Shown here: one piece after another, positions 2,532 to 52,166 of the stretch
How positions within the stretch are numbered: the first letter of the stretch is position 1
Layout of the letters: the number at the start of each line of letters is the position of its first letter
Source: Leucoraja ocellata
Lineage: Eukaryota
Length of the DNA: 64,000 nt
Assembly: GCA_036785375.1 (NCBI GenBank)
Contig: JAWMAR010001270.1
Location: forward strand, 248,001 to 312,000
Direction: 5' to 3'
The notes under the pieces: generated by a model
The model's input: only the letters and a program-made list of their open reading frames with translations
What the model was told of the DNA's origin: nothing
Database searches by the model: none
Program-made: the position numbers and the translations under genes

Positions 2532-2636
2532 GTTCGGCCAGCGTTGTCCTTGTCCTTCGCAATTTAGGAGGTACATTGATCATTCTACTGGTGTTGGCTA
2601 CCTTGAGAATTGTTTTTGGATCAAGCTCTGCCAAAG
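2532..2636 (+). CDS. Receptor gene 1: transmembrane exon with a charged Arg (GSASVVLVLRNLGGTLIILLVLATLRIVFGSSSAK)
   Basis: Acceptor ttttttacgtctgcag ends at 2531; donor AG|gtgaat at 2637; 105 nt, phase 1-1, open; hydrophobic stretch containing Arg, comparable to the NKp30 TM (TVLLLRAGF). Confidence 0.72.
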
Positions 2637-3572: not shown

Positions 3573-3668
3573 GCTCCGTGGTAAAGGTTGACCGATTGGT
3601 CGAGACATCAGAGCAAACAATGAACAGAGAGGAACATGGAAAGACCTCCGGGTATGTGATAGAAACGG
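3573..3668 (+). CDS. Receptor gene 1: cytoplasmic exon (GSVVKVDRLVETSEQTMNREEHGKTSGYVIET)
   Basis: Acceptor tttgtcttcctgtctag; donor G|gtaag at 3669; 96 nt, phase 1-1, open in the frame continuing the TM exon. An alternative donor gtatgt exists at 3652. Confidence 0.62.
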
Positions 3669-3739
3669 GTAAGAACGCTAGGGGACTTATCACAATAATT
3701 CAGTTGATATAAACTTTAAATGTTTTGTTTCTTTAACAG

Positions 3740-19299: not shown

Positions 19300-19354
19300 A
19301 TGACAGTGGAAGCATCATTTCGGTACATGGCCCTTCTGGTGACAGTTTGGCAAG
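19300..19354 (+). CDS. Receptor gene 2 exon 1: leader peptide (MTVEASFRYMALLVTVWQ)
   Basis: ATG at 19300; donor AAG|gtact; 55 nt, phase 1, typical IgSF leader exon about 200 nt before the V exon. Confidence 0.72.
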
Positions 19355-19555
19355 GTACTTTTAGATATATGTGCCGGTCCATCATATTTAATTCTGTTTT
19401 AGAATACTCCATTTAGTTGCCCACTGTGAATTTAGTTACAGTGCTTCTCCAGCTCGCTTGTCGCTAATTCTAATTTACTTTTGTAATTTTCAACTCTTGA
19501 TTAATTTTCCTTGTCCAGTTTGTGCAACTGTTTTCCGTGTTTTCCTTAATTTCAG

Positions 19556-19864
19556 CAGCCAACGAAGTAACTACGACCAAAGTGGACCAATTCCCGAAAG
19601 AGCTGACAGTCCACAGAGGAGGCAATGCGTCCATGTTCTGCACGTTCTCAATACAACAAGTTACTCCTGATGTTTCCTGGTGGAGATGGGGAGAGAAGAC
19701 ACTTATAGAACCAGACAGCAGAAAAATAATTTCTACCAGAAAGGGCATTGGGGATTTTGTTCTCCTGAATGCAAATATAGCGGACTCCGGGGTTTATTAT
19801 TGTAAAGTGAAAGGTCAGCAGCAATCTATCGGAGCTGGAGCTGGCTCCAGGCTGACTGTAATTG
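19556..19864 (+). CDS. Receptor gene 2 exon 2: VJ-type Ig V domain (NCR3/NKp30- or SIRP-like)
   Basis: VDQFP..GGNASMFC..VSWWR..DSGVYYC..GAGAGSRLTV; acceptor ttcag (NAGNAG), donor G|gtaagt; 309 nt, phase 1-1. Confidence 0.93.
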
Positions 19865-22025
19865 GTAAGTATCCCATGACGGAGAGAACGTAAGCTCTCT
19901 ATAGTATAAATTATGCTCTCTAATGTGAATAACATCACATTTTATCACTGGGTTAAAACTGGATGATTACTAATAACTATTTTTTGTTATGAAATCAAAC
20001 CACTCTGCTGACTTGAAATCTGAAATGTCTGGAAATAATTAGCTGATCGGGCAGCATGTGTGTGGCGAGGGAGGGTTGTTCTCGTTTTTCGTGCTTCCAG
20101 AGGGCCTTTTCCTTTGTCCTTCTGTAGAGTCGCGCTGCTATCGCCCACGATTCAGATTCACTCTTCATCATTCCCACGGTGCTCAGTGACCACATTGTTT
20201 TTCAGTGAAGATGCTCAAGCCACTTGGATATTTAATCTGGACTGTGGGAAGTATGGCGGCTTTTTCCTCACGGGAATCGTTTTAACACACTGAGTCTGGG
20301 TCTGCTCTTGTGTATAATGAAAAGTCACCATTCCAGGCCAACTGTGGCTGCAACCTCCTCAGAACTGTGTCCACCCACAGTCCACACACAATCTTATTCT
20401 TTTTGACGCAACCGCTACAAGATGTCTACCCAGTATTTGTTATAACTAATTTTCCGAAATCTATTAGTTGTATCCTTAAAGTCAGGAAACGTGTGAATAA
20501 AGGGAGCTCTCATGATTTGGATGTATTAAAGATAGACAAAAAATGCTGAATTTACTCGGCGGGACAGGCAGCATCTCTAATAGTGATGATTCAAACTGAA
20601 GAAGGGTCTCGGCCCGAAACGTCACCCAATTCTTCTTTCTAGAGATGCTGCCTGTCCCGCTGAGTTACGGTTTTTGTGTATTCGAGCATTTTTATTTAAC
20701 CGCCAAATATTTGTAAAGCACGAACAGAATGTAAAGGTCTTTTGAAGAACCACTAGTGCTCCTGTCCTTGCAAATCGTGGTTTCCATTTACACGACCCTC
20801 GGTTGAAATGCCTACAAGTAAAACGGCGCTGTCACTCAACATCGCAACAAATATTTATTCCACATAAAATAATCTGTTTTTGTGCCATGGAGAAACTTTG
20901 AGTTTTAGCTGGTAGTGCACTCGCTGAGGTTGAGAATAAACACAGAACTCTCTCCCGAAGGCAATAATGATCCTGATTCAATAACTTGTTAGTACAAAAA
21001 CGGAATGTAAGAACATTTAAAAGTTAGGTGTTCAACAGATTGCTTGTAATGACTCCCAATACACCTGTCCTTCCAGCTAAACATTGACTGTAGATTTAAC
21101 TGAGAAAGATCAGTGTTCGTAAATGACAAATATGGAGTTCGGTTCAATAGAATCTTACTTACATGGAATGCGTTCAATATATCGAGCAAATTTAGAAAAG
21201 GCCAGAGATATAGATAAAATGTGTTGCCACATTGGAAGTCACTTTCACGTTCTATCACCTTTATTTGTTATTATCAACCAATTGTCAGTATAACTCAATC
21301 ATACCGTGTACAATCATACCGTATATCGCGGCCTGGAAAAGGTTTTCCTTGTGAAAGTTACTTCATCTGAACTCTCAACCCCAGTCTGGCACATGTGACA
21401 ATTGTACCTTGTACCTTGTATCTTGTATCTTGAACTATTATGGGGCCAAACCTCAGATCGATAGATGTAGCCAAACCCTGCCCCTCGACCATATGCATTG
21501 GCGAGATGTGAATATATACAGGGCTGGATTCGTTAGGATTCGTTAGTCTGTGTGCAGTTTAACAATCTCCTCGTAAATTCGTGGTTTTTCTTCCGTTGCT
21601 ACGCTAACTTACCCATTGCCAACTTTTCGCTGGTTGGTAGGGTAGCCAGCGGTAAATTATCCCTTGATAATTGATTGTGGTGGGGAAGAATGAGGACAGT
21701 TGATATGGATGCGACAGGAAAATTGGATAAATTAATAGGAGTTTAATAGTCAGCGTGAAGGCGACACCGGGCCTGTATCATTCTTTGCAACATTCTCCGC
21801 ATATTACTTAAATCGAAAATCACATCCCTATGTGTTCCTTGAATGTATTTTACTGTCCATGGTAAGACGAACTATAAATCAGTGACAAATCCACGAGTTT
21901 CAAAGTGAACGTACCGATAACCCATGTGGTCATGATACTGCAATGTCTTCCCAAGCCGTACGACAGAGTATTCATTGACATGGAAAGAAGACATCCAACA
22001 TAACTTTTTTTCCCTTCTGTTACAG

Positions 22026-22316
22026 CTCCGCCAACTCCCCTGAGCATTAGCCAAGTTAATGGCAGTTCGCCGCCAAAACTTGTGTGTCAAACGGCTGCCT
22101 TTTCCCCGAAGGAAGTCAAAATATCCTGGCAAAGAAATGGTGTAACAATTTCCACCGGGGAGGAACCTGTGAACATCAGTAGCGTGGGGGGGTTGTATGT
22201 GGCTTCCAGTTTTCTCGAAGTAACAAAGCCTACCTGGCGCGTTGATATTTACACCTGCAAAGTGTCACATGTCTCCCTTGCGGTCCCCGCCAGAGTCGAC
22301 TACACCGTCAAGCCAG
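22026..22316 (+). CDS. Receptor gene 2 exon 3: Ig C1-set domain
   Basis: APPTPLSI..KLVCQTAAFSPKEVKISWQRNG..YVASSFLEV..YTCKVSHVSL; acceptor ttctgttacag, donor AG|gtaaga; 291 nt, phase 1-1. Confidence 0.93.
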
Positions 22317-24322
22317 GTAAGACTGGCAAACAGAACTGGGAACAGAGGGAGACCTCCGATCCGATTTAGAAATTATATCTGGCCGAATACTGTACGTGGA
22401 GTAGTAAATGTTAACCTATTTATTCACAGTAGAATATCGATGTGCAAGCCACCTAATGCATCATTTAGCGCTATATTTTCTCAATTAGAACTGCGACGAT
22501 TAATTGATACGTTTAATGTATATTGTGCGTGTGAAACAGCAAACTTTCAGGCACTTGACAGTGGTGTAGCAAGCACACATTCAACTCTCGACTACAAAGT
22601 GACATAATATGACGAATGGGGAAGGAGAATGCTCTGAACAAGGCATATTTTCTTTAAGACAGGAAGTCGGCTTTTAACGTTTGTATTGAGGCGATAAATT
22701 TCACTTCCCAGAGATGCGTGAATCTTTGTAATTCCGTACCTCGGAACATCGCAGATCCATAATGTTGTATTTCAGAGCTGAGATAAATAGTTTTTGAAAA
22801 TGATGATCAAGGGCAACAGGTGCATAGGAACGCGCCATCTCCTGCAAATTCCCTTCCGAGTCACAAACCATCATGACTTGTAAATAAATCGGCCGTATCG
22901 TCGCTTGGATTTGATCCTGGAACTCCCTACCCAATAACACTGTGGAATTATCTTCGAGAGGACTGCAGTGATTCACAAAGGCTGCTCACTGCCACATTGT
23001 GAAGGACAAGTATGAATTGGGAATACTGTATGTGCTGGCCTTGTCAGTTTTACCCGGATCATTTGTGTTTTAAAATCAAAAGGTATGAACAATGGGCAAG
23101 AAATGGATTCTAATTGAGGAACGACCACAATCGTGCACCCGGAGAGGTCATCTGGCCTTATTCTCTAGTCCTTATAAGTTTACCAACATGAAATGTCACT
23201 GTATTCGTCTAGTTGTATTCAAATGTAATTATTCTATCCGTTTACTGCCCATGATGCCACCAACTACCCACACTATGCCCCTCCATGCCCTTCTGGCTTA
23301 TAATCTCACCTTAAATGTTCTACCATTTCTACCAAGTATCATGTCACCTCCATATGGACGGGAACGGTTTGAATAGATATGTGCCAGGAGCAGGTAAGTA
23401 GGAGGCAAAGGAGATTGCTTTTTAAATGTTTCCAGCATCTGCAAAGTTCTGGAGATACTTAGCATCTCAGGTAGCTTGTGCGGAGGGTATCTGAAGAAGG
23501 GTCACTACTCGAAACGTAATTTCCCTCCAGCAATGCAACTAAGCCTGTTGGGTTCCTACGGCAGGCAGCTGGGACTACCTCGGTTGGGCAACGTGCTCGG
23601 CATGGGTGAGTGGCGGAATGACCGGTTTTCGTGCTATGACTCTCCTAATTTCTCATAATCTGCGATTTGGAGGCAAATCTTGTTGGAAGGCCTGCCTGTT
23701 TCTTGAAATATTTGAACACGTTAAAGGCTTGCAATCCCGCATGTAAAGGTAAATTGCTTTTGTTACACCTTAAAAGCTGTAGAATCAGGTGCTATATGCC
23801 GTCCTAAAATATGGAATCTGCTAAGAAAAAAGCAAGTCTCACTTTATATTTCATAAGTAACTTTCATGCACAGAGAGAAGCTCACTGGATCATTATGTGA
23901 CACGGTTTACGTGTTTACCATACATCTGTGTTGGAAGGAACTGCAAATGATGGTTTACACCGAAAATGGGCATGAAATGCTGGTGTAACAGCAGGTCAAG
24001 CAGCATCATCGAAGAGAAGGAATGGGTGACGTTTCCTGTCAAGACACCTCTTCAGACTGAGAGTCAGTGGAGAGGGAAACTAGAGATATGGAAGGTTACA
24101 AAGAGATGTCAGATCTGAAAATGACAGATCAAAGCAGACGATATATATTTATTCGCTAACTTGCAAATAATGCAATTCGTTCCATTCGGTATATATTGGA
24201 ATGCTTGTACACCAAGGATAAAAAGACACATTCGGAGTGCTCTGCCTTCCTGACTCCTAATTTCTCACCAGTTTCTTAGTTTATCTGTTTTACAGTTTTA
24301 AATGTATCTGCTTCTCCTGCAG

Positions 24323-24421
24323 ACTCTAATCTCGCACTGATTCCCGGATGTGTAGTGGGCGTATTGGCAATTTTAATCCCGATTATAATTTTGATAGTAC
24401 TCAGAATAAAGGCAACAAATG
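24323..24421 (+). CDS. Receptor gene 2 exon 4: uncharged TM (DSNLALIPGCVVGVLAILIPIIILIVLRIKATN)
   Basis: Acceptor cttctcctgcag, donor G|gtaaga; 99 nt, phase 1-1; hydrophobic run followed by RIK stop-transfer. Confidence 0.88.
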
Positions 24422-25041: not shown

Positions 25042-25085
25042 ATGCTAATAAAAATTCGATGGAATCAAGTCGAAGTGCAGAAACG
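25042..25085 (+). CDS. Receptor gene 2 exon 5: cytoplasmic spacer (DANKNSMESSRSAET)
   Basis: Strong polypyrimidine acceptor ttgttttctttag; donor ACG|gtaggg; phase 1-0, matching the phase-0 last exon. Confidence 0.75.
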
Positions 25086-31862: not shown

Positions 31863-31988
31863 ACTAAAGGAAGCGAAGCTGACAAGCCTACTTACGCTGC
31901 TCTGCAGTTTTCCAAATCAATTAAATCAGCACCTAAACCCAAGAACGAACACCCAGTCTACGCAGATATAAATATTTCAAAGGGGTAA
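31863..31988 (+). CDS. Receptor gene 2 exon 6: tail with two ITIM-like motifs (TKGSEADKPTYAALQFSKSIKSAPKPKNEHPVYADINISKG*)
   Basis: TACTAAC branch point at 31831-31837; acceptor ctttcacag; phase 0; TAA at 31986-31988. Spliced CDS totals 924 nt = 307 aa. Confidence 0.82.
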   Translation, partial: TKGSEADKPTYAALQFSKSIKSAPKPKNEHPVYADINISKG

Positions 31989-35199: not shown

Positions 35200-35382
<183 letters not shown>

Positions 35383-36048
35383 CTATTTAACATAATATAA
35401 CCAACACAACACCTGGACCCCAACCAACACAATCCAAAATACAAGACAGTGCAGCACAGGAAGAGGCCAATGGGCCTATAACGTTGCGGCACACACAATG
35501 CCAAGATAAATTAATTGAAGTGAAGCAGTTAATTTTGTCGATGGGGTTAATGTGATTAATAATCTGTGAACATTTATGTGGCGTGTGGCTAGCGCGTGGC
35601 GTTTTAACGAAGGTAGAAAAGACACATACACACAAATACAAGATGACTTTTATAGGTATAGAGATTGTTGGGGTGTGGTGAAGCATCCATAATATCAGCC
35701 AACTTATTACACTTTTTTTGCATCACAAACATCAGCCATCACTTTTTGTCAACATCTAAATCAAAGATAGAGGTGAAATTCAAGTCTATAAGTAATTGAA
35801 GTAGCATTGCATCAGAGTTGCCCTTCATACAAGCCACTGACTAACCAAACTCCTATACATTTGCTATGCAGATGCCAAAATTCCAATGTTACAGTCAAAC
35901 AACATAATCCAAGCAACAGTCTAACATATCAATCATATATGCAACTGATGTTCATTGGATCTTGCAGTATATGAACTGTTTGCGCCGCTTTCCTTTTCAC
36001 TCATTTACCAAAGCACTTGAGACAATGCAACAAATCAAATGGTATCTA

Positions 36049-36225
<177 letters not shown>

Positions 36226-36599
36226 TTATCTTAATATAAAATATGATGTTTCAGGGCACTTAGATGTATTATTCACCAGCTGTTAAAAAAGATATTGGAA
36301 CTAATCACCATCATTGGATGAAAACCGAACAGCAAATCAAGATATCCAAGCAAGTCACTGATATACTAGTCAAGACTATAGTAGCTCAGAATAATAGCTT
36401 ATTTTTCCAATATAATGAATGGTTCCCAAAGCAGTTTTGTTGTGAGTTGACAGGAATGCCAGAATTAGTCTCTGGAAATACTTTGACTCCATACCAGTGA
36501 CATAACATATAACAAGGAATAAGATTAAATAGTACAATTATTCCTGCAAGATTATTTCCATTCCAAAAAAAATCACATTTCAGCCAAAGGAGATCTTTT

Positions 36600-39010
36600 A
36601 AACCAGATAAAGACAAGGAAGGCCTACAGATTAAAATTCTGAATGTGGGCAAGGAAAATTTTGAAGGCATTAGAAAGAAACTCAAGGTGATTGGAGTAGG
36701 TTGTTTGCAGGCAAAGGATTATCTGGAAAGTGGGATGCTTTTAAAAATGTGATGACTAGAGTTCAGGGCTTGAGTGTTCCTGCCAGGGTGAAGCCAGGAC
36801 AGATGGACGCGAGGAAGCTTGGATGATGAGAGAAATTGAGGCTCTGGTCAGGAAAAAGGAGGTTTTGCGAGGTGTGATCAAGTGTATCCCTGGAGAAGTT
36901 TCAGGAACTGAGCAACATACTTAAGGAGGAAATCAGGGGGGTAAAAAGAGCTTTGGAGATAACTCCAGCAGATAATGTTAAGGAAAGTCCAAAGAGATTT
37001 TAAGTGTGTTAAGGGGAAAAGGGCAACTAGAGGGAGAACATGACCCCTCAGAACCCAAAGCTGTCATCTGTGTGGAGCCCCAGGTGATGAGCAAGGTCTT
37101 CAATGAGTATTTCTCCTGTTTTTACCATGGAGAAAGATGAATGAGGAACTTGGGGTTGTCAATGGCAGGGTTTTGGTGACAGTCAGTATTACAGTTGATG
37201 AGGTGCTGACATCCCAAGGCGCATGAAGATAGACAAATATTTCAGGCATGATCAGATATGTCCGTGGATACTGTGGGACATAAGAGAAGTAATTGCAGGC
37301 GTCCTGGCTGAAATATGCAAATCTTCATTAAATAAGACTGGATGGAAATGTTGGCTAATGTTGTGCCTCCATTGAAGGAAGGTTGCAAGGAAAGGTTTGG
37401 GATTTACAGACCAATGAGCCTAACATATGCAGCAGGCAAGTTACTGGAGAGTATTCCAAGGGCAAGATAAATATGGACATTTTGATAGGGTCTGATTAGG
37501 GATAGTCAGCATGGTTTTGTACATGGACGATTGTATCTTACCAACCAGATTACGTTTTTTGGAGATATAACCAAAAAGGTTGATGAGTGCAGAGCTGTAG
37601 ACATTGTCTATATGGATATCAGCAAGGTATTTGTTACAGTCTGCTGGAAGGCTGCTCTAGAAAGTTAGATTGCATGGAATCCAAGGAGAGCTAGCTGACT
37701 GGATAGAAAGGTGGTTCAATGGAAAGAAGCATAGGGGGATGGCAGAAGGCTGTGTTTCAAACTAGTGGCCTGTGACTAGTGGGGTGTCTCAGGGCTCACT
37801 GCTGGGCCCTTCATAATTTGCAGTTTGGATCAACGATTTGAATGAGAATGTACAAGGCAGAATTGGTAAGTTTGCAGATGACACTAAAGGGATGGTATTG
37901 TAGATAGCAAAGATGACCATCAAAGATTACACAACAGTATTGATCAGTTGGTCAAGTGAGCTAAGGAATGGTTAATGGAGTTCATTGCAGGTAAATGAGA
38001 GGAGTTTCATTTTGGGACCTCAAACCAGGGCAGGACCTTCACTGTGAATACCTGGGTCCTGGGGAGTGCAGCAAAGTGTAAAGATCCAGGAGTGCAGGTA
38101 TATAATTCTTGAAAGTAGCGTCACAAGCAGATAACGTGGTCAAGAAGCCTTTTGACATAGTGGCCTTTATCAGTCAGGGTACAGAGTATACAAGTTAGGA
38201 TATTATGTTACAGTTTTACAAGACATCAGTAAGGCTACATTTGGAGTATTTGGTTTAGTTATGGTCACCCCACTAATGGAAAGATGTTGTCAAGCTGGAA
38301 AGAGTGCAAAGAAGATTTACGAGGGTGTTGCTAGAACTTGAGGCCCGAGCTATGGGGAGAGGTTGGGCAGACTGGTACTTTATTTCTAGGAGCCCAAGAG
38401 GATGAGGTTATCAAGCTGTATGAGATCATACGTACATGCACAGGGTCATTTACCTAGAAAAGGGGAATCCAGAACCAGAGGACATTTGTTTAGGTGAGAG
38501 GGGAAAGATTTAATAGCAATCTGAGAGTCAACTTTTTCCAGAGGGTGGTGGGTATATGCATGAGCTGCCAGAAGAGATAGTTTCAGCAGATATAAGCATA
38601 CAACATATAACCATATAACAATTACAGCACGGAAACAGGCCATCTCGGCCCTTCTAGTCCGTGCCAAACACTTATTCTCCCCTAGTCCCATCTACCTGCA
38701 CTCAGACCATAACCCTCCATTCCTTTCCAGTCCATATACCTATCCAATTTATTTTTAAATGATAAAATCGAACCTGCCTCCACCACTTCCATTGGAAGCT
38801 CATTCCACAGCTACCGCTCTCCGAGTAAAGAAGATCCCCCTCATGTTACCTCTAAACTTCTGTCCCTTAATTCTCAAATCATGTACTAGAATAGCATTTA
38901 AAAGACATTTGGACAGGTACATGGACAGGAATGGCTGAGTGATTTGGGCAGGTGGGACTAGTGCAGATGTGGTAGCTTGGTCAGCATGTTACATATTGGC
39001 GTTATACAAC
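36600..39010 (+). mobile_element. Degenerate CR1 LINE in NUDT21 intron 4, with a nested younger antisense CR1 3' piece (about 38604-38884)
   Basis: Collinear with the CR1 at 1-2118; nested piece matches the copy starting at 4926. Confidence 0.85.
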
Positions 39011-39176
39011 TCTAAGTGAAGCCATTTTCTTTAAGTTTTAATAATAAATAGCCCTCGGGAACAGCGAGACAGTCGCAAACCTTCGGAAGCACTGTTCTTT
39101 ACATTGTGTTTAGCATTGAACTAGATCTAATCTTTCTATAAAGCATCAACCATGTTTCAAGAACTTATAGTTATCA

Positions 39177-39344
<168 letters not shown>

Positions 39345-39780
39345 TTACAGTTGTATCAGTTCGTCTTCAACATCAAACAGATGTGAACTTCTCCGTCTTG
39401 GGGGTAAGGACCATCAAACCCTTGGGGCTTGTCTGATAGGTGCTGGCTTTAATCAGGTTGTTATCACACCCCGCCCCCCCTACACCTTATTTGGCTGATA
39501 CTTTGACAGCTTATTTAAAAGGTGGGGAAATCAGTGGAAACATAATGGTAAATGGAGCACAAATCACAAGGAATTTCCTGAAAGGCAAGAAAAGCAAAAT
39601 TGCTGAGACTAGATGAAGAGACGAGAAGTAGGATTGCAGTTTGTGGAAACCTAAATGATCTTTATGATTCCACTAGTCTTTCCATACTTGCATCAACCCT
39701 CAGAAAATTTGCAAGATTCAAATCAGGCCTGCTAGTAAAAAAATGACATCCAAACCAGAATCAAACCAGCTGATCTTTTA

Positions 39781-39888
<108 letters not shown>

Positions 39889-41179
39889 TTAACATAGCAA
39901 AAACTGTTACAATGCAAAAAAAAAAAAATGCACTCTAGATCACATCTAAATATGTTAGAGCTCAGAATCACAAAAACAGACCCTTCAGCCTACCTTACCC
40001 AAGCTGGCATACTGGGCAAATCTGATTTGCCTACAATTGGCCCTTAGCTCGCTATATGTTTCCTATCCATACATCTTTTGAAATGCCTTTTACAAGGCAT
40101 TTTTATCTGCCTCTATTGCTTCCTTTGGCAGTTCATTTCAGATGCAGACTACCTCAATTGCCTGGGGTCCTTCCGAAATCTTTTCCCTCATCTTAAGCCA
40201 ACGCCCACTAGTTTTAGAATCTTCTATCCTAGGGAAAAGGGCATGAACATTCATTTTTGCCACACCCCTCATGTCCAGTTCACTGCATAGATCATTAACA
40301 CTTTGTTCACAAACACCAAATCTAGCTGTGTCCATCACAGTCAGTTATTAAAATTATTCTCATTAGCTCTTGGCTGTGGAGATAGATAGGGCTCTCAATC
40401 ATTAACTAACAACTGCTGCCAATACCATGTATATTAAGCACACAAGATTTGTATTCTGTTGTTAAGAAGACTAGTGTTCAGAAATAGTCTGCTCTGTAAC
40501 CATTGCACCAGTTACATTGGTATACACTGATACATCTGTTAACAGCACTGGATTGGAAGTCAATGGTTTTGGGACAGGAAGCACACCAAGATGAAATAAA
40601 TTACATGAGATCTGTTTCATAGCATTGAAGTATTCTGAAACAGATTGGTGAGTTTAGATCAGTCTATATCCTCTCAATTAAACACTATATAGCAAATCTT
40701 CTACTGCAGGGAATACCTATCTACATTTTCTCACTAGACATCCCCAGACCAAGTTCATCCTGTGAACCAAAGTGTATTGAATTCAAACGTGACAAGAAAT
40801 TGCAGTTACTAGAACCTGGAGCGTTGGAGGAACTCAAAAGGTTAGGCAGCATCTATGGAGGGAATTGACAGATGATGTTTTGAGTTGGGACCCTTCTTCA
40901 GACTGCTCCATTCCCTCCACAGATGCTGCGTGACCGATTGAGTTCCTCCAGTACTGTTGAATTCAATACACTGAAAGTACCTTAGAAAACATATGATCTG
41001 CCCACAAAATTCATTTTCCAATATTCTCCAAAAATGCAGTTTAAAATGAAAATATAGGTTAAACTATGACTTCAAGTCAATGTCCTCAACTAAAACAGTT
41101 TGATGTTTTTGACATGTCCCCAGTGAATAGAGATGTGAAAGCAAGTCATCCTGAACCCCTTATTTATAAAATGACTATT

Positions 41180-41880
41180 TTCTATTATGGCGAGAGAATT
41201 GAGAAATTGGAGGGGCAAAGCAATTGGGGAGTGCTGGTACAGGATGCCCCAAAACATTAATTTGCAAGTTGAATCGGTAGTAATGACGGCAAATGCAACG
41301 CTAGCATTAATTTTAGAGAGGACTAGAATATAAAAACAGGGGTGTAATACTGAGGCATTATAAATGCACTAGTCGGACTGCATTTGGTGAATTGTGAGCA
41401 GTTTTGGGTCCATATCTGAAGGATGTGCTGGCTTTGGAAAGGGTCCAGATGAGGTTTATTAGAATGATCCCAGGAATGATTAGGTCAACATATGATGAGC
41501 ATTTAATGGCACTGGGCCTCTAACCACTGGAGTTTAAAAGGATTGGGGGGGGACTAAATTGAAACTTACTAAACAGTGAAAGGCTTGGATAGAGTGAAGA
41601 GGATGCTTCCACTAGAGGGAGAGTACAGGTCCAGAGGCAATAGCCTCAGAATAAAGAGAGATGATGAATTTTCTTTTGTCACAGGGTAGCGAATCTTTGG
41701 AATTCATTGCCACAGACGGCTGTGGAGACAAAGACAATGGATATGTTTAAGGCAGAGATTGACAGATTCTTGATTAGTACAAGTGTCAGGGGTTAAGGCG
41801 AGAAGGCAAGAGAATGGGGTTGAGAAGGAAAGATAGATCAGCCATGACTGAATAGTGGAGTAGACATGATGGACCACATG
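41180..41880 (+). mobile_element. Degenerate CR1 LINE 3' fragment
   Basis: Resembles the CR1 3' ORF2/UTR seen elsewhere in the window; boundaries approximate. Confidence 0.7.
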
Positions 41881-42168
41881 GAATTTAAGACCTACTAGCT
41901 GCACACTATTCATACATATTCATAGAAAATGATCAATGCCTTTTTGTGTCTAACCATCTCATGTCCATCATATGGAAAACGTTTACAACATTTGGCTACA
42001 GTCACCATCTGAAACATGACATTAGTAAGATTGATGGACACCAAAAGATACACCAACTCCAGTACACACCACTGATCAGCCACCAAATGTACTTAAAATG
42101 TTTCTCAAGGACTTGATTCATACTCCCAACCTTTTAGATGTTATTGATCTCATTGACATATGGACTCA

Positions 42169-42429
<261 letters not shown>

Positions 42430-45130
42430 CTAACATACTTAGGGTTCTAGGATAAGGGTAAATCAAGCTAGACGGTAGAGAGATTGCTGTCAATTAGTGA
42501 GAAGCCACATTTCTAGAATGCTGTTACTTTTCAATTTTCACATTGAAACAGTGTTAGGTGAAAAGCCACATTAATTCTATTTGCCTTTCCACTGATCAAA
42601 ACTCATTTAAAAAGATTAAACCCTTTTTTTTGTTTCATCATTACCCAAAACAGTAAATGTTTATCACAAAAATCAAGAGCTGCTGGAAGAATTCAGTAAG
42701 TCAGGTAGTATCAGTGGAGAGAAGAGTGGACAGCTGAATTTTGGATTGATATCCTTCATTTAAAGTCTAGGTGAAGCGGCTTGGCCCGAAACATCAACTA
42801 TCCAATTCCCACCACAGTTGCTGTTGAATTGTTCCAGCAGCTCCCTTTATTTTGCTACAGATTCCAGCAGCTGCAGTCTCTTGAGCCCCCAAATGTTTAT
42901 ATAAGATGTAAAATGTAGAGAAATAAAGAGATTAACAGTTGTTTCAATGTTGCACTTTGGAAGTCATGCAGTTCTTTTACTTTGCTCAACTTGCATACTT
43001 TCAAAGGATTTCAGGAACCACACTAAACACTTCAAAGGAAAAACATTCTAGAAATGCAGAGAATATTAATTCAGAATACTAGTGGTTTCCCAGTTATGCC
43101 AAGCGAAAACAAGGCTACATTCAGATAAAAGGATTTATTGACAGATTTCACAAAGGTATTAAACAGGTCTGGTGGATTTCAGCAGAAATATAGAGCACCT
43201 TTTAGCAGTAATCCGAGAGCACAGGTTTAAAATAAAGATGCGAATAAGCACAATATTTTTTTTAAAGTATAGAAACAAGAGAGAAGCAAATTCAAGGAGG
43301 ATATATTTGCAGGAAATTGAATAGCTCATAAAAGAGATAACAGAAGAAATGTCTAATCCCACGAGAAGCCCACTAATAGTGTTCACAATTCAGCATTGTC
43401 TTCTGCTACATTGTCAGTTAAAACTTCAAATGTAAGGCAATAATCCTAAGAGACAAAAGAATGTCTGAACCATTACATATCAATATGAACAAATTGTTTG
43501 TACTCCTTTCTCAACAGCACAGATAAATCAGTTAATCCATGGCCATTTACCAGCACCCCACATAAATGACCATGCCTCACATGAGAACCAAAAGTGATTT
43601 AACCATCGAGGCTGCTTACATCTCCCAAATGAAATCAATTATATTTGTCAAAACTGCAGATTATCTTATCTTGTTGTTCTCAAATACCCTATTCTCCTAA
43701 CACAGCCAAGCAGCAGGTGTATTTCAAAAAGACTAGAAGTGCATGCAATAGAGCTGAATGTTTTTCTTCAATAGTTTAGCAATGAAATACTTTGTATTTG
43801 CAGAATTAGGGAGGAAGGAAAAAACCATAACGTTTCACTCACAATTAATAGCAAGATATCAAGGTTTTAGATATTGCACTAAATGCAAGGTAACACTATC
43901 AGTTGTGGAATACCATCAAAAATGGGCAATTAAACAAGGAATAGGGACCAGGTACTATCATGGAATTGTCACTATAATGAGTTAAGAGATAAATGAGAAT
44001 AACACAGCCCATGTGTTGTATAAAAGGGATGTCAACATTAAACACAATTTAGTACTTAAAAAGGCTTCTAAAACTAGATTTAGAGTATTAATATTTTCAA
44101 TTACATACAACATCCTTTATATCCTGAACAGAGAAGCATAAAGAACATTCACAGATATTGCATACTGGAAAGGCTAGTATTTAATGCCCATTTCTAATTG
44201 CTCTTGAACGAAGTGGCTTGCTGGATCAGTGAATCAACTGTATTATAAGGATCCTGGAGTCCACTTACATAGGAGACTAGTCAAAACATCAGTCATCTAT
44301 CAAGATTAATTAAATTAATAAAGATAAAACATTTGTGCCCAATGTAGTTCAATTTGAACTGATGCCTGGTTCATTACTCCAGCGGACTTGGATTACTAAC
44401 CATACTAAAGCAATTTCAGAAGTTTATAAAATTGAGAAGTATGGATAGGATAAACAGTCAGAATTGTTTTCCCCCAGGGTGGAAATGTCAAATACTTGAG
44501 GGCATGGCTTTAAGGTAAGAGGGGAAATTTAAAGATTGCAAACCAAGTTTTTTTTTGTTTTTTTTTTTTGCAAAGACAAAATTGAAACATATATGAATGA
44601 ATTTGCAAGGAATGAAGGGACTGGGGATCGTGCAAAGGCAGAAGGATTTGGTTTAATTTGATGTGTTCAGCATAGACATCGTGAGCCAAAAGACATGCAC
44701 CCAGGCTAATGATTATGTTAAATAGCACAGTAGAATTGAACAAAGCATTAAAGTTTAAAAAAAACTAGAGATTTATAAACACATCGTATCGACAAGTCCG
44801 CAAGTAATATTAAGCCCCCTCCAAACTACAAAAGATAACAGTTTTACATTCAACCAACCGTCGGCAAATTCTTCAGATCAGGGACTACATTTGCAGGTAC
44901 CAACACTTGAAATACACAGTGGGTGGTGCAGCCGACGGTGAATAAATAATTTGAACATCACCCAAACTACACACCACACAATGGACCCCAGACGACACAT
45001 TACTGTTCAATGTTAGGAACAGTCAGTTACTGCTTGCTACACGAGTCCTGTCACACAGAAGGGCGTTTGGAAGCTTGGCGGTTCTTAGCGAGATACAGAC
45101 CACCTATTACCATCCACTACGGTTACTCAC

Positions 45131-45243
45131 AGGTTAATGGTCCTTTCCAGGGTCAGGGGCTTGGCCTGCAGATATTTGTTCCCATACTGAGAGACACCTC
45201 GAGGCCAGCCAGCCTGCGAGCGGCTCGGTGGAACCACAGACAT
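45131..45243 (-). CDS. NUDT21: NUDT21 (CPSF5/CFIm25) exon 1
   Basis: [38 protein letters not shown]; donor gtgagt; all 7 exons sum to 681 nt = 226 aa. Confidence 0.97.
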
Positions 45244-45339
45244 GGCAGCAGATCTCCGTCTGCGGGAGTAGACTCTAGGACACGGCGAAGCCACGGGAAC
45301 AGACAAAAGTCTACAACGCTAAGAACTCGAATCTACGAA

Positions 45340-45500
45340 TGAACCTGTCTTGGCGCTTTAACCGAAGAGATTCGCTTCCGGGTGAGCACAGCACTTCCGG
45401 GTGAGAGAACGGCGCCAGAAGGGATGTGCACGTGATTGGCCGGTCCGTGCCGCCGCCGCCGCCATGTGGGGGCTGCTGCTGCTGCTGCTGGAGTGCGGGC
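45340..45500 (-). promoter_or_regulatory. NUDT21 CpG-rich promoter
   Basis: Duplicated CTTCCGGGTGAG (ETS/GABP-type) at 45375-45386 and 45394-45405; CACGTG at 45429-45434; adjacent CCAAT box (attgg); GCCGCCAT (YY1-like). Confidence 0.7.
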
Positions 45501-46529
45501 AATTGTCGAGACCAGCAGAGGGAGCTTTTACTTCAGCTGCAAATAAAAACAATATAAAGCAGAAAGACAGTTCTTTGAAGTGAGAATTAAAATCTGGAAA
45601 TACTCGAAAGGTCAGCGCCTGTGAGAGAGAAGCAGTTATCTTTCTTTTTCTTCAGATATCAGCAGTTGTCTGAACTGTTCAGCGTTTCCGGTATATAATT
45701 ATATTTTATTTCACAATCCCAGCATATGCAGTATTTTGCTTTTGACTTCTTATAGAGGGGGAGCCTATGCAACCTTTTTCAGACAGAAATGTCAAGTGGA
45801 TCACCATTTCCTATTATTGAGGTCTCCACCATCAGAAAGGCAGTTTTCAGTGAATTTGTTTCACAGCATATGATGCCAAGTCTGGATAAATTGTATTCGG
45901 TATAGGATCTAGGGATCGAGAATATCCCAGTGGTTTGGCTGAAGACGTGCTCCAGAACTGCACGCAGCTCTGAGCAAGCTGTTAAGTACATAAATCTATT
46001 TGGAAAATTGCCGAGGTAAGAACCAAAGATGATAGAGCGGTGCAAGATACTCCACTCCTACGTAATCCAACGCACTGAGGTGTTGTACGTAACGGAGCGT
46101 CACGGCCGCCATCTCTCAATGCAAAACGTGACTTCCGTTGTGCCTCTCGCAGTGTAATCCGCTCCATCATCTTTGGTGTAATCAGTGTTGTAGGGGAACA
46201 GTGTGTGATATAGCTCATTTATTACTTCACATATTTTAATTAATTTTATTGTAAATGTTTCCCCCCTGTTCCTGCCTATTTCCCTCCCATCCTTCCTCCC
46301 CAGCCCCCTCCTTTGTACAGTTTTCCTTGCATTGTATTGTGCAGTTCCCCTTGTATTGTTTTAACACGCACTGTGCACAAAATTAAATTTAACATAGATG
46401 TAAATATATATATTTATATATATGAATGTGTGTTTGTGTGTGTGTGAGAGGCAAGTTAGAGATAAATAGATAAAGTTCCGTCTCATGGATCAGAAGCAAC
46501 TTTGATTACACTGATGCAATTATAAAGAA

Positions 46530-46870
46530 AGCACATCATCGCCTCTACTTCCTGAGATTACGGAGAGTCGGTATGTCAAGGAGGACTCTCTCTAACTTCT
46601 ACAGGTGCACAGTAGAGAGTAGGCTTGGTTCGGCACCTTGAGCGCCCAGGCGCGCAAAAGACTACAAAAAGTAGTAAACACTGCCCAGTCCTTCATCGGC
46701 TCTGACCTCCCTACCATCGAGGAGATCTATTGCTGCCTCAAAAAGGCTGGCACCACACCATCCTGGCCACACGCTACCTTCAGGTAGAAGGTACAGGAGC
46801 CTGAAGACTGCAACGTCCAGGTTCAGGAATAGCTGCTTCCCCACAGCCATCAGGCTATTAAACTCAAATG
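46530..46870 (+). mobile_element. Rex1/Babar-like LINE 3' fragment
   Basis: Resembles the 3' ORF end of the element at 61688-62559 (..GRRYRSLKTATSRFRNS..). Confidence 0.6.
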
Positions 46871-47097
46871 AAACAAAACTCTGAACATTAATAGACCATT
46901 ATCTGTTTATTTGCACCTTATCTGTTTATTTATTCATGTGTGTATATATTTATATAATGGTATATTGACCCACTGATCTGTTCTGTTAAGAATTTCATTG
47001 TACTATCTGGGATGTACATAAACCATGAAGGCAATTATATATTTAAATATACACATGTAAATATATGGATATATATGTTGTGAGGTTAATTAAATTT

Positions 47098-47676
47098 TTA
47101 CGCTGCTTGTAATTTACTAGGGGATGATGGGAGTGTTGAAGGAAGTTCTCGATTTATATTATCAAGGAGTGATGGAGCTGATGGAGAAGACGGACATGGT
47201 GCAAGGTCACGAAGTGAGACAGTTGACTGATGTCCATCCTGATACTTGATAGTTGCATAAGAAGAGTTGACATCAGTCAGTTCAACTTCATCAACAAAAG
47301 GCTCATTCTTATTTGATCGGACATATCGACAAAGCAACAGGCCCAGTGCTGGTCAACCATGATGGCAGAGAAGTACCACTCGAAGAACGGTGTTTCAAGT
47401 TAAAGAACCGCTCGTGTGGAGTAGTATTGGTAGCAGTTGACAGTAGAGATCTGATGTAATGTGTAAATAAGCAGACTGTACAATCTGGTGTTCAAGATCA
47501 TCTTTAATCAGTACCCATAATGTAGCGGTACAGTAGGTTATTAGTTGTTAGTTCATTGTTACTGCTTCCAAGACTGACCAGTATAGGAAGTGGGTGTTAG
47601 TATGAATCATACAGTAAGGTGGAGTTAGTGATGTTATTTCTACTATGATTGGTTCACATACAATAACCAATCTACA
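47098..47676 (-). mobile_element. Gypsy remnant: LTR-like segment (47462-47676) joined to an integrase C-terminal fragment
   Basis: TGTAGATTG...ATTAAA...TTTACA ends like the 26235-26435 LTR; IRSLLSTATNTTPHERFF..QSTVSLRDLAP. Confidence 0.65.
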
Positions 47677-47799
47677 GAGTGCAATGCATCTGGTAGAACA
47701 CATTCCCACTGCTGATCTGATATGTCATTTGACTTTAAAGCCAGCTTCACTGCTTTCCAAATGATTCTGTTATACCTCTCAACATGATTATCATGCTAC

Positions 47800-49960
47800 C
47801 CGTCGCTTCCCGAGGCCCCTATCTGTCAAGGGCCTGCTGGGGTTTATCGGGATGGTTAATATCTACCACCAATTCGTCCCGTCAGCAGCCACCTTCTTGC
47901 GGCCGTTGTTCCAATGCCTGGCCGGTATGCCAGGTCTGGTCCAAGGAGGCAGAGAAGGCATTCGAGGGGGCTAAGACTGCATTGGCCAACGCCACTATGC
48001 TGGAACGCCCAAACGGCCCTCACCGTGGACGCTTCCGACGTCGTGGTAGGCGCCGTCCTCGAGCAACGAGCATGTAGTCGCTGGGTGCTGCTGGCATTTT
48101 TCAGCAGGCAGCTGTGAGCCCCCGAAATTAAGTATAGCGCTTTCGACCGGAAACATATTGCGCTCTACCTAGCGATCTGCCATTTCCGTTATTTCCTGGA
48201 GGGGCTTGCATTCACCGCATTCACGGACCACAAGCCACTCACGGTTGCGTAGACCAAGGTATCCGATCCCTGGTCTGCCAGACAGCAGCGGCACCTCGCC
48301 TACATTACCGTATTCACATCTGATATTCGGCATGTGGCGGGGAAGCTGAACGTTGTGGCTGACGCGCTGTCCCGCCCAGCACCGCCCGCAGTTTCAGCGT
48401 TAAGTTTAGGCGTGGATTATGCGGAGCTGGCCGCTGCCCAACAGACAGATGCCGGCATGGAGGTTTACAGCAATGCTGAATCATATCTCAAGCTGGCTAA
48501 GGTGCCCTGCAGCGCCGCCGGCGTGCGAGTCCTTTGCGATATCTCCACGGGCAAAGCCCGTCCCATTGTCCCGGTTGCTTAGAGGCGTATGATTTTCGAC
48601 TATCCACAGCCTAATGCACCCGTCCATTTGCGCCACCTCTGCCTTGGTCGCGGCCAAGATCGTCTGGCATGGGTTGAGAAAGCAGGTCGCAGCATGGGCC
48701 CGTTCCTGCATCCCGTGCCAGAATTCCAAGGTGCAGAGACATGTGCAGGATTTCGCTGTCCCGGACAGCAGGTTCCTGCACATCCATGTTGACCTGGTGG
48801 GTCCCTTGCCATGTTCGCGTGGGGCTACTCACCAACTGACTATCGTGGACAGGTTTACCAGGTGGGCGGAGGCGATACCGTTAACGGATACCTCCACTGA
48901 GGCGTGCGCGAGGGCCATCGTCTCGAATTGGATTGCTCGTTTCGGGGTTAGAAACATAGAAATTAGGTGCAGGAATAGGCCATTCGGCCCTTCGAGCCTG
49001 CACCGCCATTCAATATGATCATGGCTGATCATCCAACTCAGTATCCCGTACCTGCCTTCTCTCCATACCCCCTGATCCCCTTAGCCACAAGGGCCACATC
49101 TAACTCCCTCTTAAATATAGCCAATGAACTGGCCTCAACTACCCTCTGTGGCAGAGAGTTCCAGAGATTCACCACTCTCTGTGTGAAAAAAGTTCTTCTC
49201 ATCTCGGTTTTAAAGGATTTCCCCCTTATCCTTAAGCTGTGACCCCTTGTCCTGGACATCCCTAACATCGGGAACAATCTTCCTGCATCTAGCCTGTCCA
49301 ACCCCTTAAGAATTTTGTAAGTTTCTATAAGATCCCCTCTCAATCTCCTAAATTCTAGAGAGTATTCTAGAGGTTCCCTCTGATATCACTACTGATCATG
49401 GGGCCACGTCATCCCTGTGGAGTGGTATGGTGCAGCTGTATGGTGCGAAGCTGCACCAGACCACCGCGTATCACCCAGAGTCCAACGGTTTGGTTGAGCG
49501 TTTCTACAGGCTCAAGTCGGCGTTGAAAGCTTGGCTCACCGGCCCCAATTGGGTCGACCAGTTGCTTGGGTCCTCCTAGGCATCAGAACCACTCCTAAGG
49601 AGGACCTCAACAGCTCCTCTGCCGAGTTGGTTTACAGCTCGGTTTTGCGAGTACCTGGGGATTTCCTGCCCGTCTCCCGGGATCAGGAGATCCCGGCTTC
49701 GGCGGTGTTAGCTGACCTTCGCGAGCGGGCGCACGCTTTGGTCCCGGTTCCCACTTCCCGGCATGGTTTGGCTGCGGTGCATATACCTACTATGTTACGG
49801 GATTGTGCTTATGTTTTCCTTTGTAGGGATGCTCACTGCTCACCGTTACAGCGGGTGTACGAGGATCCGTACAGGGTGCTGAGGACTGGTGCCTCGACGT
49901 TTACGTTGGACATGGGTGGCAAGGAGTTCGTCTCTGTGAGCCACCTTAAGCCAGCGCAAG
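47800..49960 (+). mobile_element. Gypsy/Ty3 pol remnant (RT end, RNase H, integrase), frameshifted
   Basis: LTVDASDVVVGAVLEQ, FTDHKPL, NVVADALSR, HIHVDLVGPLP..LTIVDRFTRWAEAIP, TTAYHPESNGLVERF. Confidence 0.92.
48950..49371 (-). mobile_element. Young CR1/HER1 3' fragment nested in the Gypsy integrase
   Basis: Interrupts WIARFGV|PSDITTD; GGTT duplicated at 48946-48949 and 49372-49375; ORF MRGDLIETYKILKGLDRLDAGRLFP. Confidence 0.9.
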
Positions 49961-50290
49961 GGGGGGGGGGGGCATGTAGCGGCGCCTGCGGGTATCGAAC
50001 AGGTTTGGAAGCCGCGGTCACGTGACTCGGGAGGGGCTGCTTGATTTTGCATGGTTTTGTTTTCGCGCGGCAGGTCAGCACTGACCACCATTGTAGCCAG
50101 ACGTGTCAAGAAAGCCTGTAAACTGAAGAGTGAATTTCCGAATAAAAATTATTTTAAAAATTCAGTTGTCGTTCTTGCAACCGCCAAAGTATGTTATTTA
50201 ACGCATGCGTGCCATCCAGGAGCAGTTCAGACAGGGAGTACTGAACGGAATGCAGGGGCTTTGTCAATAGTTTGGTTGCTTCGTGGTCAA

Positions 50291-51122
50291 TAGGGTAATT
50301 TCACGAAAGGTCACTGGAGCGTAGATCTGCACCCACGTGACCGAAAATTTCAACTGGAGTACATGTTATACATCGGTACATGTTAGTGAATGGGAAAACA
50401 CGCACTTTCCCACCCGTTAAAAACATGGAAAACGGCCGATATTTGAGCTGAAATTTTCTGTGCTAGTCGGGGTGACCGTGAAGCACAGCGACCTAAATTT
50501 TCAGGCAAAAAAAAAGATAGAAAGTAAGGTAATTACAAGAGGGAACTGAAGGTGGAAAAACAGCGGAAGTGCTTAGCAGACATTTGCCGTGGAGATTTAA
50601 AGATCCAAAATATCAGGAATTATCGCGTTTGCTTACTGAATTTCATCAAAAATAAGTTAATAATGCCTGCCCAAGATTGCAAGATATTGCAGAGAGTTGT
50701 GGATGCAGCTCAGTCCACCACACAGACCAGACTCGCCAACATTGACACCATTTACATATCACGCTGCTTTGGGAAAGCAGCCAACATAATCAAGGACCAT
50801 TCCTACCCCGGTCATTTCTGCTTCCCACTGTCCTCATAGGGCAGAAGAAACAGAAGCTTGAGAGCACACACCACCAGACTCAGCCACAGCTTCTTCCCCC
50901 GTTATTATGCTTCTGAATGGTCCTTCCATAAACTAAGGCATAGTCCTGAGTTTCCATCCTGCCTTGTTGTGGACATTGACATTTCGATGTTTTTAACGGG
51001 TGGGAAAGTGCGTGTTTTCCCAATCACTAACATGCACCGATGTATTACATGTACTCCAGTTGAGATTTTCGGTCACGTGGGTGCGGATCTACGCTCCAGT
51101 GACCTTTCGTGAAATCACCCTA
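50291..51122. mobile_element. Non-autonomous DNA transposon with about 140-bp TIRs, containing a Rex1-like fragment (about 50660-50980)
   Basis: TAGGGTAATTTCACGAAAGGTCACTGGAGCG... at 50291 is the reverse complement of ...CGCTCCAGTGACCTTTCGTGAAATCACCCTA ending at 51122. Confidence 0.82.
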
Positions 51123-51479
51123 TAAACTTATGAAGTTAAACTACTTGTCGTTATTTCTACAACTTCATAATATGTACTTTAGGGATGTCATCTAACCCGC
51201 CGAATTATTCCAGCGCCAAGTGTTCCTAACGTACCAGTCAACAAAATGCTGGAGTAGCTCAGCGGGACACGCAGCATCTCTGGATGGAAGGAATGGGTGA
51301 CATTTCAGCTTGAGACCTGTCTTCAAACTGAGTCAGGGGAGAGGGAGACACAGAGATAAACTCCCACCCCTAAGTGTAAGGTGTGAAAACTAGACATGAA
51401 AGAGAAATATAAGATATAATTTCTTCAATTTTCCACGGCGATTTATAGCAAGATTATCACATGATTATAATTACATTGA

Positions 51480-51773
51480 CCGCAGATGAGAATAATGTCG
51501 CGCCTGCTGCAGTGACCCCGGAGATTATAACCATGGCAACGTGACCTCACCCCTTTCAGGATGTTCCCTGAACTGTGCTGACGTCTCACACATTTCATTT
51601 CCGGGTGCTTTCAACAGATCACCAGCCGCCCCGCTTGTTGGCGACGTCGCCCACTGCTACTCGCCACAAACTCGGGAGGAGCAGGGGAGACAGCGGTTCG
51701 CGCCCGCGCTTCGTCACTGGCTAACGGCAGCGCCGCTCTCACCCTCACCCGCAAGTCGAGCCTCGGCCCGATC
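51480..51773 (+). promoter_or_regulatory. AMFR CpG island promoter / 5' UTR
   Basis: CpG-rich; CCATGGCAAC (X-box-like), TGACGT, TTTCCGG and GCCCCGC motifs. Confidence 0.6.
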
Positions 51774-52166
51774 ATGCCGCTGCTTTTCCTCGAACGCTTC
51801 CCTTGGCCCAGTCTGAGGTTGTACACAGCCCTCAGCGCGGTACTGCTCGCCGCCAGCCTCTTCAGCGCCTACTCTCACCTCAGCCTGCCCCCGGGCCAAG
51901 CTCCGATCTCTGTCCCTCGTTACCATCCCAACCTCGGCACTCCCATCCCTATTGACGCCATAAGCGGCGATCTACCGGCCGCCGAAGCCAACAGCGACGG
52001 GGATACCGGAGCAGACCGCGAGCAGCGCGTCCACCCTGGCGCAGGGATCTACGTTGACCATGGTGAGCCCGATTTGGGACTCTCGGGCAGACCGGAGTGG
52101 GCTCAAGGCCACGGATTCGCCCTGGAAATAGCCTGGTACCTGGTATCAGACGGCTGGTGTATTTGG
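51774..52166 (+). CDS. AMFR: AMFR (gp78) E3 ubiquitin ligase exon 1; later exons not found in the window
   Basis: MPLLFLERFPWPSLR..YLVSDGWCIW, the diagnostic AMFR N-terminus; donor TGG|gtgagt, phase 0. Confidence 0.93.

Follow-up and report, generated by a model that had tools for sequence, protein, structure and literature searches.

A likely inhibitory-type member of an apparently unnamed SIRP-like paired-receptor family in the skate Leucoraja ocellata

V domains with a G-x-G motif are common to CD79, NITR, SIRP, CD8, NKp30, PRARP and CD28 members (PMC11599192). The tyrosine motifs of signalling tails follow the consensus (S/I/V/L)xYxx(I/V/L) for the ITIM and TxYxx(V/I) for the ITSM, the SH2 domains of SHP-2 favouring Ala at +1 and Leu or Ile at +3 (PMC12151841), and in LILRA a transmembrane arginine recruits FcR-gamma (PMC10679719). 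UrIg and UrIg2 have been put forward as candidate targets of RAG, a case built on the fact that they are linked to the MHC and to the Ig/TCR complex (PMC12227049; PMC10751288), and NCR3 is described as MHC-linked (PMC12227049). NITR homologs are reported to be missing from cartilaginous fish (bioRxiv 10.1101/2021.06.11.448072). For sharks and rays, little mapping has been done of receptors that come in inhibitory and activating pairs.

Here we describe a gene from the skate Leucoraja ocellata that is best read as a likely inhibitory-type receptor, belonging to a paired family which resembles SIRP and apparently has no name. The window that we analysed is a stretch of 64,000 nucleotides within a 3.44 Gb assembly (contig JAWMAR010001270.1, hereafter C1270; C1270:248001-312000), and coordinates without a contig prefix count from its first letter. 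Splice sites and homology predict a six-exon frame (leader-V-C1-transmembrane-two cytoplasmic exons) that reaches 31988 and codes for 316 amino acids:

19300 to 19354, plus strand: leader exon (ATG, split leader, phase 1 donor), resembling the leaders of relatives
19556 to 19864, plus strand: compact V domain in a single exon with a J-like G-x-G strand and 54 residues between the cysteines
22026 to 22316, plus strand: C1-set exon, supported by Pfam and by the fold of a horn shark relative
24296 to 24421, plus strand: predicted exon for the stalk and an uncharged transmembrane helix (19 residues with a hydropathy of 3.2)
25042 to 25085, plus strand: predicted first cytoplasmic exon, 97-100% conserved in 5 copies
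31863 to 31988, plus strand: last exon, with the tyrosine motifs YAAL and YADI and then a stop, homologous to the ITIM exon of relatives

The leader, V and C1 exons are open, bounded by GT-AG and in phase 1. Pfam matches the V exon at 36.8 bits (I-set) and 34.5 bits (V-set) and the following exon at 54.7 bits (C1-set, cut-off 21), the latter in agreement with a preliminary description of this DNA, made from its letters alone, which had put one C1-set domain after the V domain. That description took the gene for a VJ-C1 ectodomain; its exons are real, but the gene goes on through a transmembrane and two cytoplasmic exons to 31988. An alternative in-frame acceptor lies at 24323, within the transmembrane exon, and one family exon of the skate genome is almost identical to a protein of Leucoraja erinacea (P0036). 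The two tail motifs are spaced 22 residues apart and both carry Pro at -2, a feature fixed in all 5 copies seen; neither fits the ITIM or ITSM consensus, and both retain Ala at +1 and Leu or Ile at +3.

The V domain is trimmed to the size of a VNAR, with 54 residues between its cysteines (54-60 across the family) against 68-73 in Ig/TCR V, 61-63 in NCR3-like exons and 50-52 in I-set domains of the same genome. The claim that one exon holds a V domain with a J-like G strand and diglycine bulge is borne out as regards the G-x-G, which 33 of the 36 V rows of the family preserve, though without the Phe or Trp of a J segment. This residue is found ahead of the G-x-G in 0 of the 36 rows (9 of them read by eye), compared with a Phe in 4 of 4 germline-joined IgL, and its place is taken by Asn in 25 of the 36, mostly as a glycosylation sequon. 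The J Phe/Trp serves V-V pairing, and we infer that the V domain of the window-gene protein is monomeric. The letters GAGAG that had been given for the J-like strand belong to one allele; on the other haplotype, 3 residues of this copy are different, and each of them falls in the FG loop or G strand.

No site resembling a recombination signal sequence (RSS) was found in a scan of 100 nt before and 300 nt after the V exon and of the V-C1 intron, while a heptamer-23-nonamer was detected directly 3' of 7 of 7 TCR/IgH V segments of the same genome used as controls. Across the 14 V exons of C1270, 11 have no RSS match at all and 3 have degenerate ones only. A rearranging antigen receptor (Ig/TCR) is rejected on this contrast, and the earlier statements that no RSS stands beside the V exon and that the product is a non-rearranging, germline-joined V(J-like)-C1 protein both hold.

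In the AlphaFold2 model of the V domain (pLDDT 89.4, 32 sequences), strands A, A', B, C, D, E and F are present together with a split G, and nothing between C and D reaches a strand length of 3 residues. The fold search puts a skate VNAR first (Z 14.8, rmsd 2.0, 96 aligned), level with NCAM2 (Z 14.7) and basigin (14.2) and close to CD79b (13.8), with NKp30 at 12.9; SIRP is not on the VIA fold-match lists, an absence that excludes nothing. Foldseek returned E-values of 3e-9 to 6e-8 across 50 ranks, the Z scores of the fold search ran from 14.8 to 12.6, and a V profile searched against the PDB returned mostly multi-I-set proteins. In a horn shark relative, the C1 domain matches MHC class II beta2 (Z 15.4, rmsd 1.5, 98 aligned), and a two-domain model matches MHC class II C1 (Z 15.4), NCAM2 (15.4) and VNAR (15.1) alike. 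At the level of these predicted models, fold searches do not rank receptor families.

What gives the tyrosine-bearing tail its context is the next gene upstream, whose V (C1270:244511) and C1 (C1270:247356) exons lie just 5' of the window and of which a transmembrane exon and a candidate tail exon fall within it:

2532 to 2636, plus strand: transmembrane exon of the upstream paralog bearing an arginine, of a type found after 4 paralogs
3573 to 3712, plus strand: candidate exon for a short tail in the upstream paralog, lacking an ITIM-like motif and conserved in 4 copies

This paralog is 79-80% identical to the window gene in V and 92% in C1, and its arginine lies near the outer end of the transmembrane helix. 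Counting both haplotypes, the arginine-type exon follows 4 paralogs, and the uncharged transmembrane exon with the same tyrosine exon follows 5. The gene at C1270:3271 has V and C1 exons that are identical in protein to those of the arginine-type gene at C578:1070, yet carries the inhibitory tail, as recombination between paired genes would give. The division recurs in database relatives, 36 of 49 of which have a transmembrane segment: 19 of these 36 models combine it with a long tail and a consensus ITIM, 5 have an arginine-type helix and a short tail, none has both, and 12 belong to neither class, many of them looking truncated. Linked genes with like ectodomains, the one with an uncharged helix and a tyrosine tail and the other with a charged helix and a short tail, are the arrangement by which paired receptors are recognised, and the window gene and its upstream neighbour likely form such a system. 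The skate arginine exon was detected by a splice-and-hydropathy scan. A genome search with a shark arginine-type transmembrane segment and tail gave 0 candidates, and a profile of 5 shark arginine-type tails run over 883 kb of family DNA gave weak matches only (best E 0.025), leaving the skate arginine exon unmatched; because the shark profile misses it, the activating forms may have more than one origin.

A search of the genome with the V exon of the window gene gave 81 matches, of which 48 reach E<1e-6; these V exons are spread over both haplotypes, 14 on C1270, 11 on contig C578, 22 on C26 and 1 on C105, with four more on C26, and nearly all V exons of the family are paired with a C1 exon. 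The genes form a tandem array, at whose end the window gene stands. We take C578 to be the other haplotype of C1270 because it bears the same NUDT21 exons, and between the two A-type gene pairs there are 8 V exons on C1270 and 5 on C578. Among close copies, V exons are about twice as variable as C1 exons, at silent as well as replacement sites; positive selection was not seen over whole V exons, with pN/pS of 0.45 and 0.76 in two subfamilies. On the far side, the array is bordered by two flanking genes:

35200 to 42369, minus strand: exons of NUDT21 (Pfam NUDIX_2)
51768 to 52100, plus strand: probable first coding exon of AMFR, judged by its N-terminus

NUDT21 begins 3 kb past the last exon of the window gene. 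The second exon, which has no Pfam or PDB match, presumably encodes the N-terminus of AMFR, and on the other haplotype the exon for the G2BR of AMFR lies about 39 kb downstream of it on the same strand. OGFOD1 sits among the family copies on C26, a contig separate from C1270. All three genes adjoin copies of the family, and they neighbour one another at human 16q13.

Sharks, rays and chimaera are the sources of the database relatives. A word-index search gave 45 matches, of which 40 have E-values of 8e-28 or better, 38 of them from named chondrichthyans and 2 without a species name, and the remaining 5 are weak multi-Ig proteins, the next best at 5e-11; no relatives appeared outside cartilaginous fish in this search, which is insensitive and does not establish absence from bony vertebrates. 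Automatic annotation has given the relatives at least six names (SIRP-like, tapasin-, NCR3LG1-, IgL-, TCR- and MHC-like). Within each species their contigs are of a single length, which points to one chromosome, and in one bamboo shark model (P0005) the C1 domain is duplicated into near-identical copies.

To place the family, we computed trees for each domain separately (LG+G4, about 100 columns) from a hand-picked set of 15 genome copies and 21 or 19 database proteins, with outgroup labels assigned by the analyst and with row sets that leave aside TCR C, VNAR, SIRP, B7-H6, PRARP, NITR and CD8/CD79. In the C1 tree, built from 62 rows and 99 columns, a branch (99/93) has all 34 rows of the family on one side, apart from IgL, IgH, UrIg-like, MHC, three tapasin-like and multi-C1 rows, the multi-C1 proteins being weakly the sister (72/77). 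In the V tree (60 rows, 103 columns), the 36 family rows come together (97/93), and the Ig and TCR V domains form a group of their own (96/91), whose partners (95/84) are CD28-, nectin- and TIM-like rows and not the family. The V exons of the same genome that we label NCR3-like make up a separate group. The family thus lies outside every one of the germline-joined IgL, NCR3-like, tapasin-like, MHC and Ig groups included. In both trees the window gene is one of 9 rows that make up a batoid group (support 99/98 and 99/91), and it is, as far as the sequences tell, a young batoid tip of the family.

From the observed anatomy and pairing of these genes, we consider it probable that the window gene is an inhibitory-type leukocyte receptor of a tandem paired family of cartilaginous fish. 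Its expression, ligand and signalling would follow the analogy of SIRP, LILR and NITR: the compact V domain, as a monomer, would bind a cell-surface or microbial ligand, Src kinases would phosphorylate both tail tyrosines, and SHP-1 or SHP-2 would then bind the tail and damp activation, while the arginine partner would signal through an ITAM adaptor of the FcR-gamma type. The brake is probably weaker or retuned in the subfamily of the window gene, because both of its tyrosine motifs carry Pro at -2.

Where the family comes from is a different matter, and here a descent from the SIRP lineage deserves some credence, well short of an even chance. The family would then be the SIRP of cartilaginous fish, either a moved ortholog or a whole-genome-duplication paralog (ohnolog), with V and one C1 replacing V-C1-C1; such an origin is compatible with the inhibitory paired-receptor mechanism. 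SIRP-alpha V-C1 is the best non-antibody match of the family V-C1 profile in the PDB (72.3 bits), but the same profile gives an equal score to kappa V-C (75.3) and lambda (71.1). Taken by itself, the membrane-proximal C1 of SIRP-alpha (its third domain) reaches 49.7 bits, where IgG-type C domains have 24-31 and UrIg2 C2/C3 27-38, and it opens with the same VPPT-L start as the family. With a full-length relative, two SIRP-alpha clusters rank first in the ESM Atlas (0.96), and with the ectodomain alone unnamed V-C1, CD200- and B7-like clusters appear and named SIRP is no longer first by features. Many relatives bear the automatic name 'SIRP-like', but others are called NCR3LG1-, tapasin-, IgL-, TCR- or MHC-like. 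A single paralogy group takes in human 16q13 and the part of chromosome 20 that holds SIRP. In the skate, no Ig exon was found within 100 kb around each of two SEP-domain genes (NSFL1C/UBXN2-type, a label that does not fix their identity), and the family is on other contigs than these. Against the descent stand the single C1 of most family models, the trimmed V and the arginine-type activating helix, the activating helix of SIRP-beta using Lys and DAP12. The layout V-C1-transmembrane would suit a B7-type ligand (NCR3LG1/B7-H6-like) shown to another receptor. For the two-domain model, B7-H6 shares the top of the fold matches (Z 15.0, rmsd 3.9, 188 aligned), the Atlas matches of the ectodomain include B7-like clusters, and several of the automatic names point the same way. 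We find this improbable, since paired ITIM and arginine forms and tandem turnover suit receptors, and the C1 domain stands apart from the tapasin/B7-like rows of the same genome in a tree without B7-H6.

The preliminary description went further and suggested a possible relative of the pre-RAG receptor, that is, a family that is sister to Ig/TCR and derives from the unsplit VJ-C1 gene into which the RAG transposon inserted itself. The VJ-like and C1 layout, the split leader and the lack of RSS agree with this, as do VNAR as the top fold match of V and the high scores of UrIg2 and IgL chains with the family profile, and AU tests on thinned sequence sets reject neither the family with all antigen-receptor V (p-AU 0.256) nor, for the C domain, the family with IgL C (0.261) or with all Ig C (0.43). 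However, the best V tree places Ig/TCR V with CD28-, nectin- and TIM-like domains, none of the 36 V rows has the J Phe/Trp, and as a fold match VNAR ties with NCAM2, basigin and CD79b. UrIg2 scores 61.8 bits, below SIRP-alpha, G-x-G V domains are widespread from CD79 to CD28 members (PMC11599192), and the locus adjoins NUDT21, OGFOD1 and AMFR and is not evidently linked to the MHC or Ig/TCR. The window gene itself is a recent tip of a fast-duplicating array, with a tyrosine tail and a trimmed V. A special pre-RAG link is, on the sequences, not supported and not rejected, and we hold the sister relationship to be very unlikely. There is, correspondingly, very little probability that the family, dating at least from the divergence of chimaera and sharks, would be the surviving innate sister of the RAG-split gene, and the pre-RAG receptor a monomeric on/off receptor of leukocytes; if so, that receptor would have diversified by gene duplication and ectodomain swapping. 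We give scarcely any credence to an Ig light chain or TCR gene that was once rearranged and then fixed, joined, in the germline. Such genes exist in the skate genome and IgL chains dominate the Foldseek matches of the two-domain model, at low TM-scores, but the family with IgL V is rejected (p-AU 0.010), the J Phe is missing, a transmembrane segment and tyrosine tail are present, V is 14-19 residues shorter between the cysteines, and the family is common to cartilaginous fish from chimaera through rays. An identity as germline-joined IgL is rejected by these points together with the V and C1 trees.

With the inhibitory-type paired receptor as the preferred reading, the family becomes a candidate for the role of KIR, LILR and NITR in the oldest jawed lineage with adaptive immunity, on the strength of dozens of VJ-C1 genes, ITIM and arginine forms, copy-number variation between haplotypes and ectodomain swaps. 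Trees on the origins of antigen receptors and SIRP should add it as a C1-bearing, non-rearranging family, which on present evidence does not identify the RAG target. We found no description of it in the literature searched, although earlier papers or supplements may already name it; a supplement file to the elephant shark genome paper (PMC3964593) holds no match to SIRP, NKp30 or ITIM. Receptors of this kind are known (SIRP, LILR, NITR), and the combination of a trimmed J-like V, a single C1, an arginine partner and this locus was not found in the literature searched.

Among the systems described, NITR of teleosts and holosteans share with the family a non-rearranging V-J exon, multigene clusters and a majority of ITIM forms (bioRxiv 10.1101/2021.06.11.448072; PMC2442602), but their second domain is I-type with a J-like end of its own, where that of the window gene is C1-set. 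NCR3/NKp30 of cartilaginous fish likewise has a VJ-like V in a single exon that is fairly short (61-63) and lacks the Phe before the G-x-G, and an AU test does not reject the family with NCR3-like V (0.397); the window gene differs by its C1 domain and tyrosine-motif tail, and the NCR3-like exons of the same genome are on other contigs. UrIg and UrIg2 are also non-rearranging VJ and C1 proteins of cartilaginous fish with a split leader, but they have at least three C1 domains, form disulfide-linked dimers and are single genes linked to the MHC or Ig/TCR, expressed in liver and gill (PMC12227049), whereas the family is a multigene one of V-C1 proteins with signalling tails, the window gene having one C1 followed by the transmembrane segment. 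VNAR, the V domain of IgNAR, resembles the V of the window gene in being compact and without a C'' strand, but it rearranges, and the fold match, at about 21% identity, is tied with I-set domains. SIRP, finally, is the best functional model for the family and not a demonstrated ortholog: it shares the single-exon G-x-G V followed by a C1-set domain, the paired forms, the tandem cluster and the two-tyrosine tail, and the family departs from it in having one C1 in most models instead of V-C1-C1, a V with 54-60 residues between the cysteines, an arginine-type activating helix and a locus at NUDT21/OGFOD1/AMFR.

The last exon of the window gene, a probable inhibitory-type member of the tandem V-C1 paired-receptor family of cartilaginous fish, encodes a signalling tail with a distinctive feature:

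31863-31988, + strand: last exon with two tyrosine motifs, Pro at position -2 in both

This proline precedes both motifs in all last-exon copies of the gene's subfamily (5/5), position -2 being occupied by Leu and Thr/Ala in the tyrosine motifs of relatives, and on these sequences we regard it as a fixed change of the subfamily's tail.

Elsewhere on the window contig (C1270), one gene (L011 and L012, C1270:3271-18054) has an inhibitory transmembrane (TM) segment and tail attached to an activating-type ectodomain and is probably a recombinant of paired genes. Within C1270:24734-234600, two TM-like exons and last-exon fragments often trail B- and C-type genes, and broken copies occur (a C1 at 79049 and a V with a stop at 120644); the pattern possibly reflects alternative TM use or duplication debris. 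A single member lies off the main array contigs (L069, C105:6079366-6087600), with a strongly diverged C1 and an intact V that clusters with horn shark P0006 (97/98 in the V tree).

Large genes built of many C1-like exons on C424 (L104, L125, L126) and C40 (L111-L113) come out, with weak support (72/77), as closest to the family in their C1 domains. A row of three C1 exons (L100, C367:151700-154700), which groups firmly with no Ig isotype, is possibly UrIg. A further non-rearranging V-C1 gene is present in two copies (L075:985-2931 and C175:1202039), each with a CD28H-like V exon carrying EIPPP in its FG loop and followed directly by a C1-set exon. Germline-joined V exons in tandem on C76 and C5 (L081, L083, L130) cluster with a sigma-type IgL V (98/84) but lack the J Phe and have G-N-G-T at their ends.

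NUDT21 and AMFR are arranged head-to-head at 35200-51768 of the window, and OGFOD1 lies amid family copies on another contig (C26:12085362). As this differs from the human order of the three genes, it suggests an inversion with breakpoints inside the family array.
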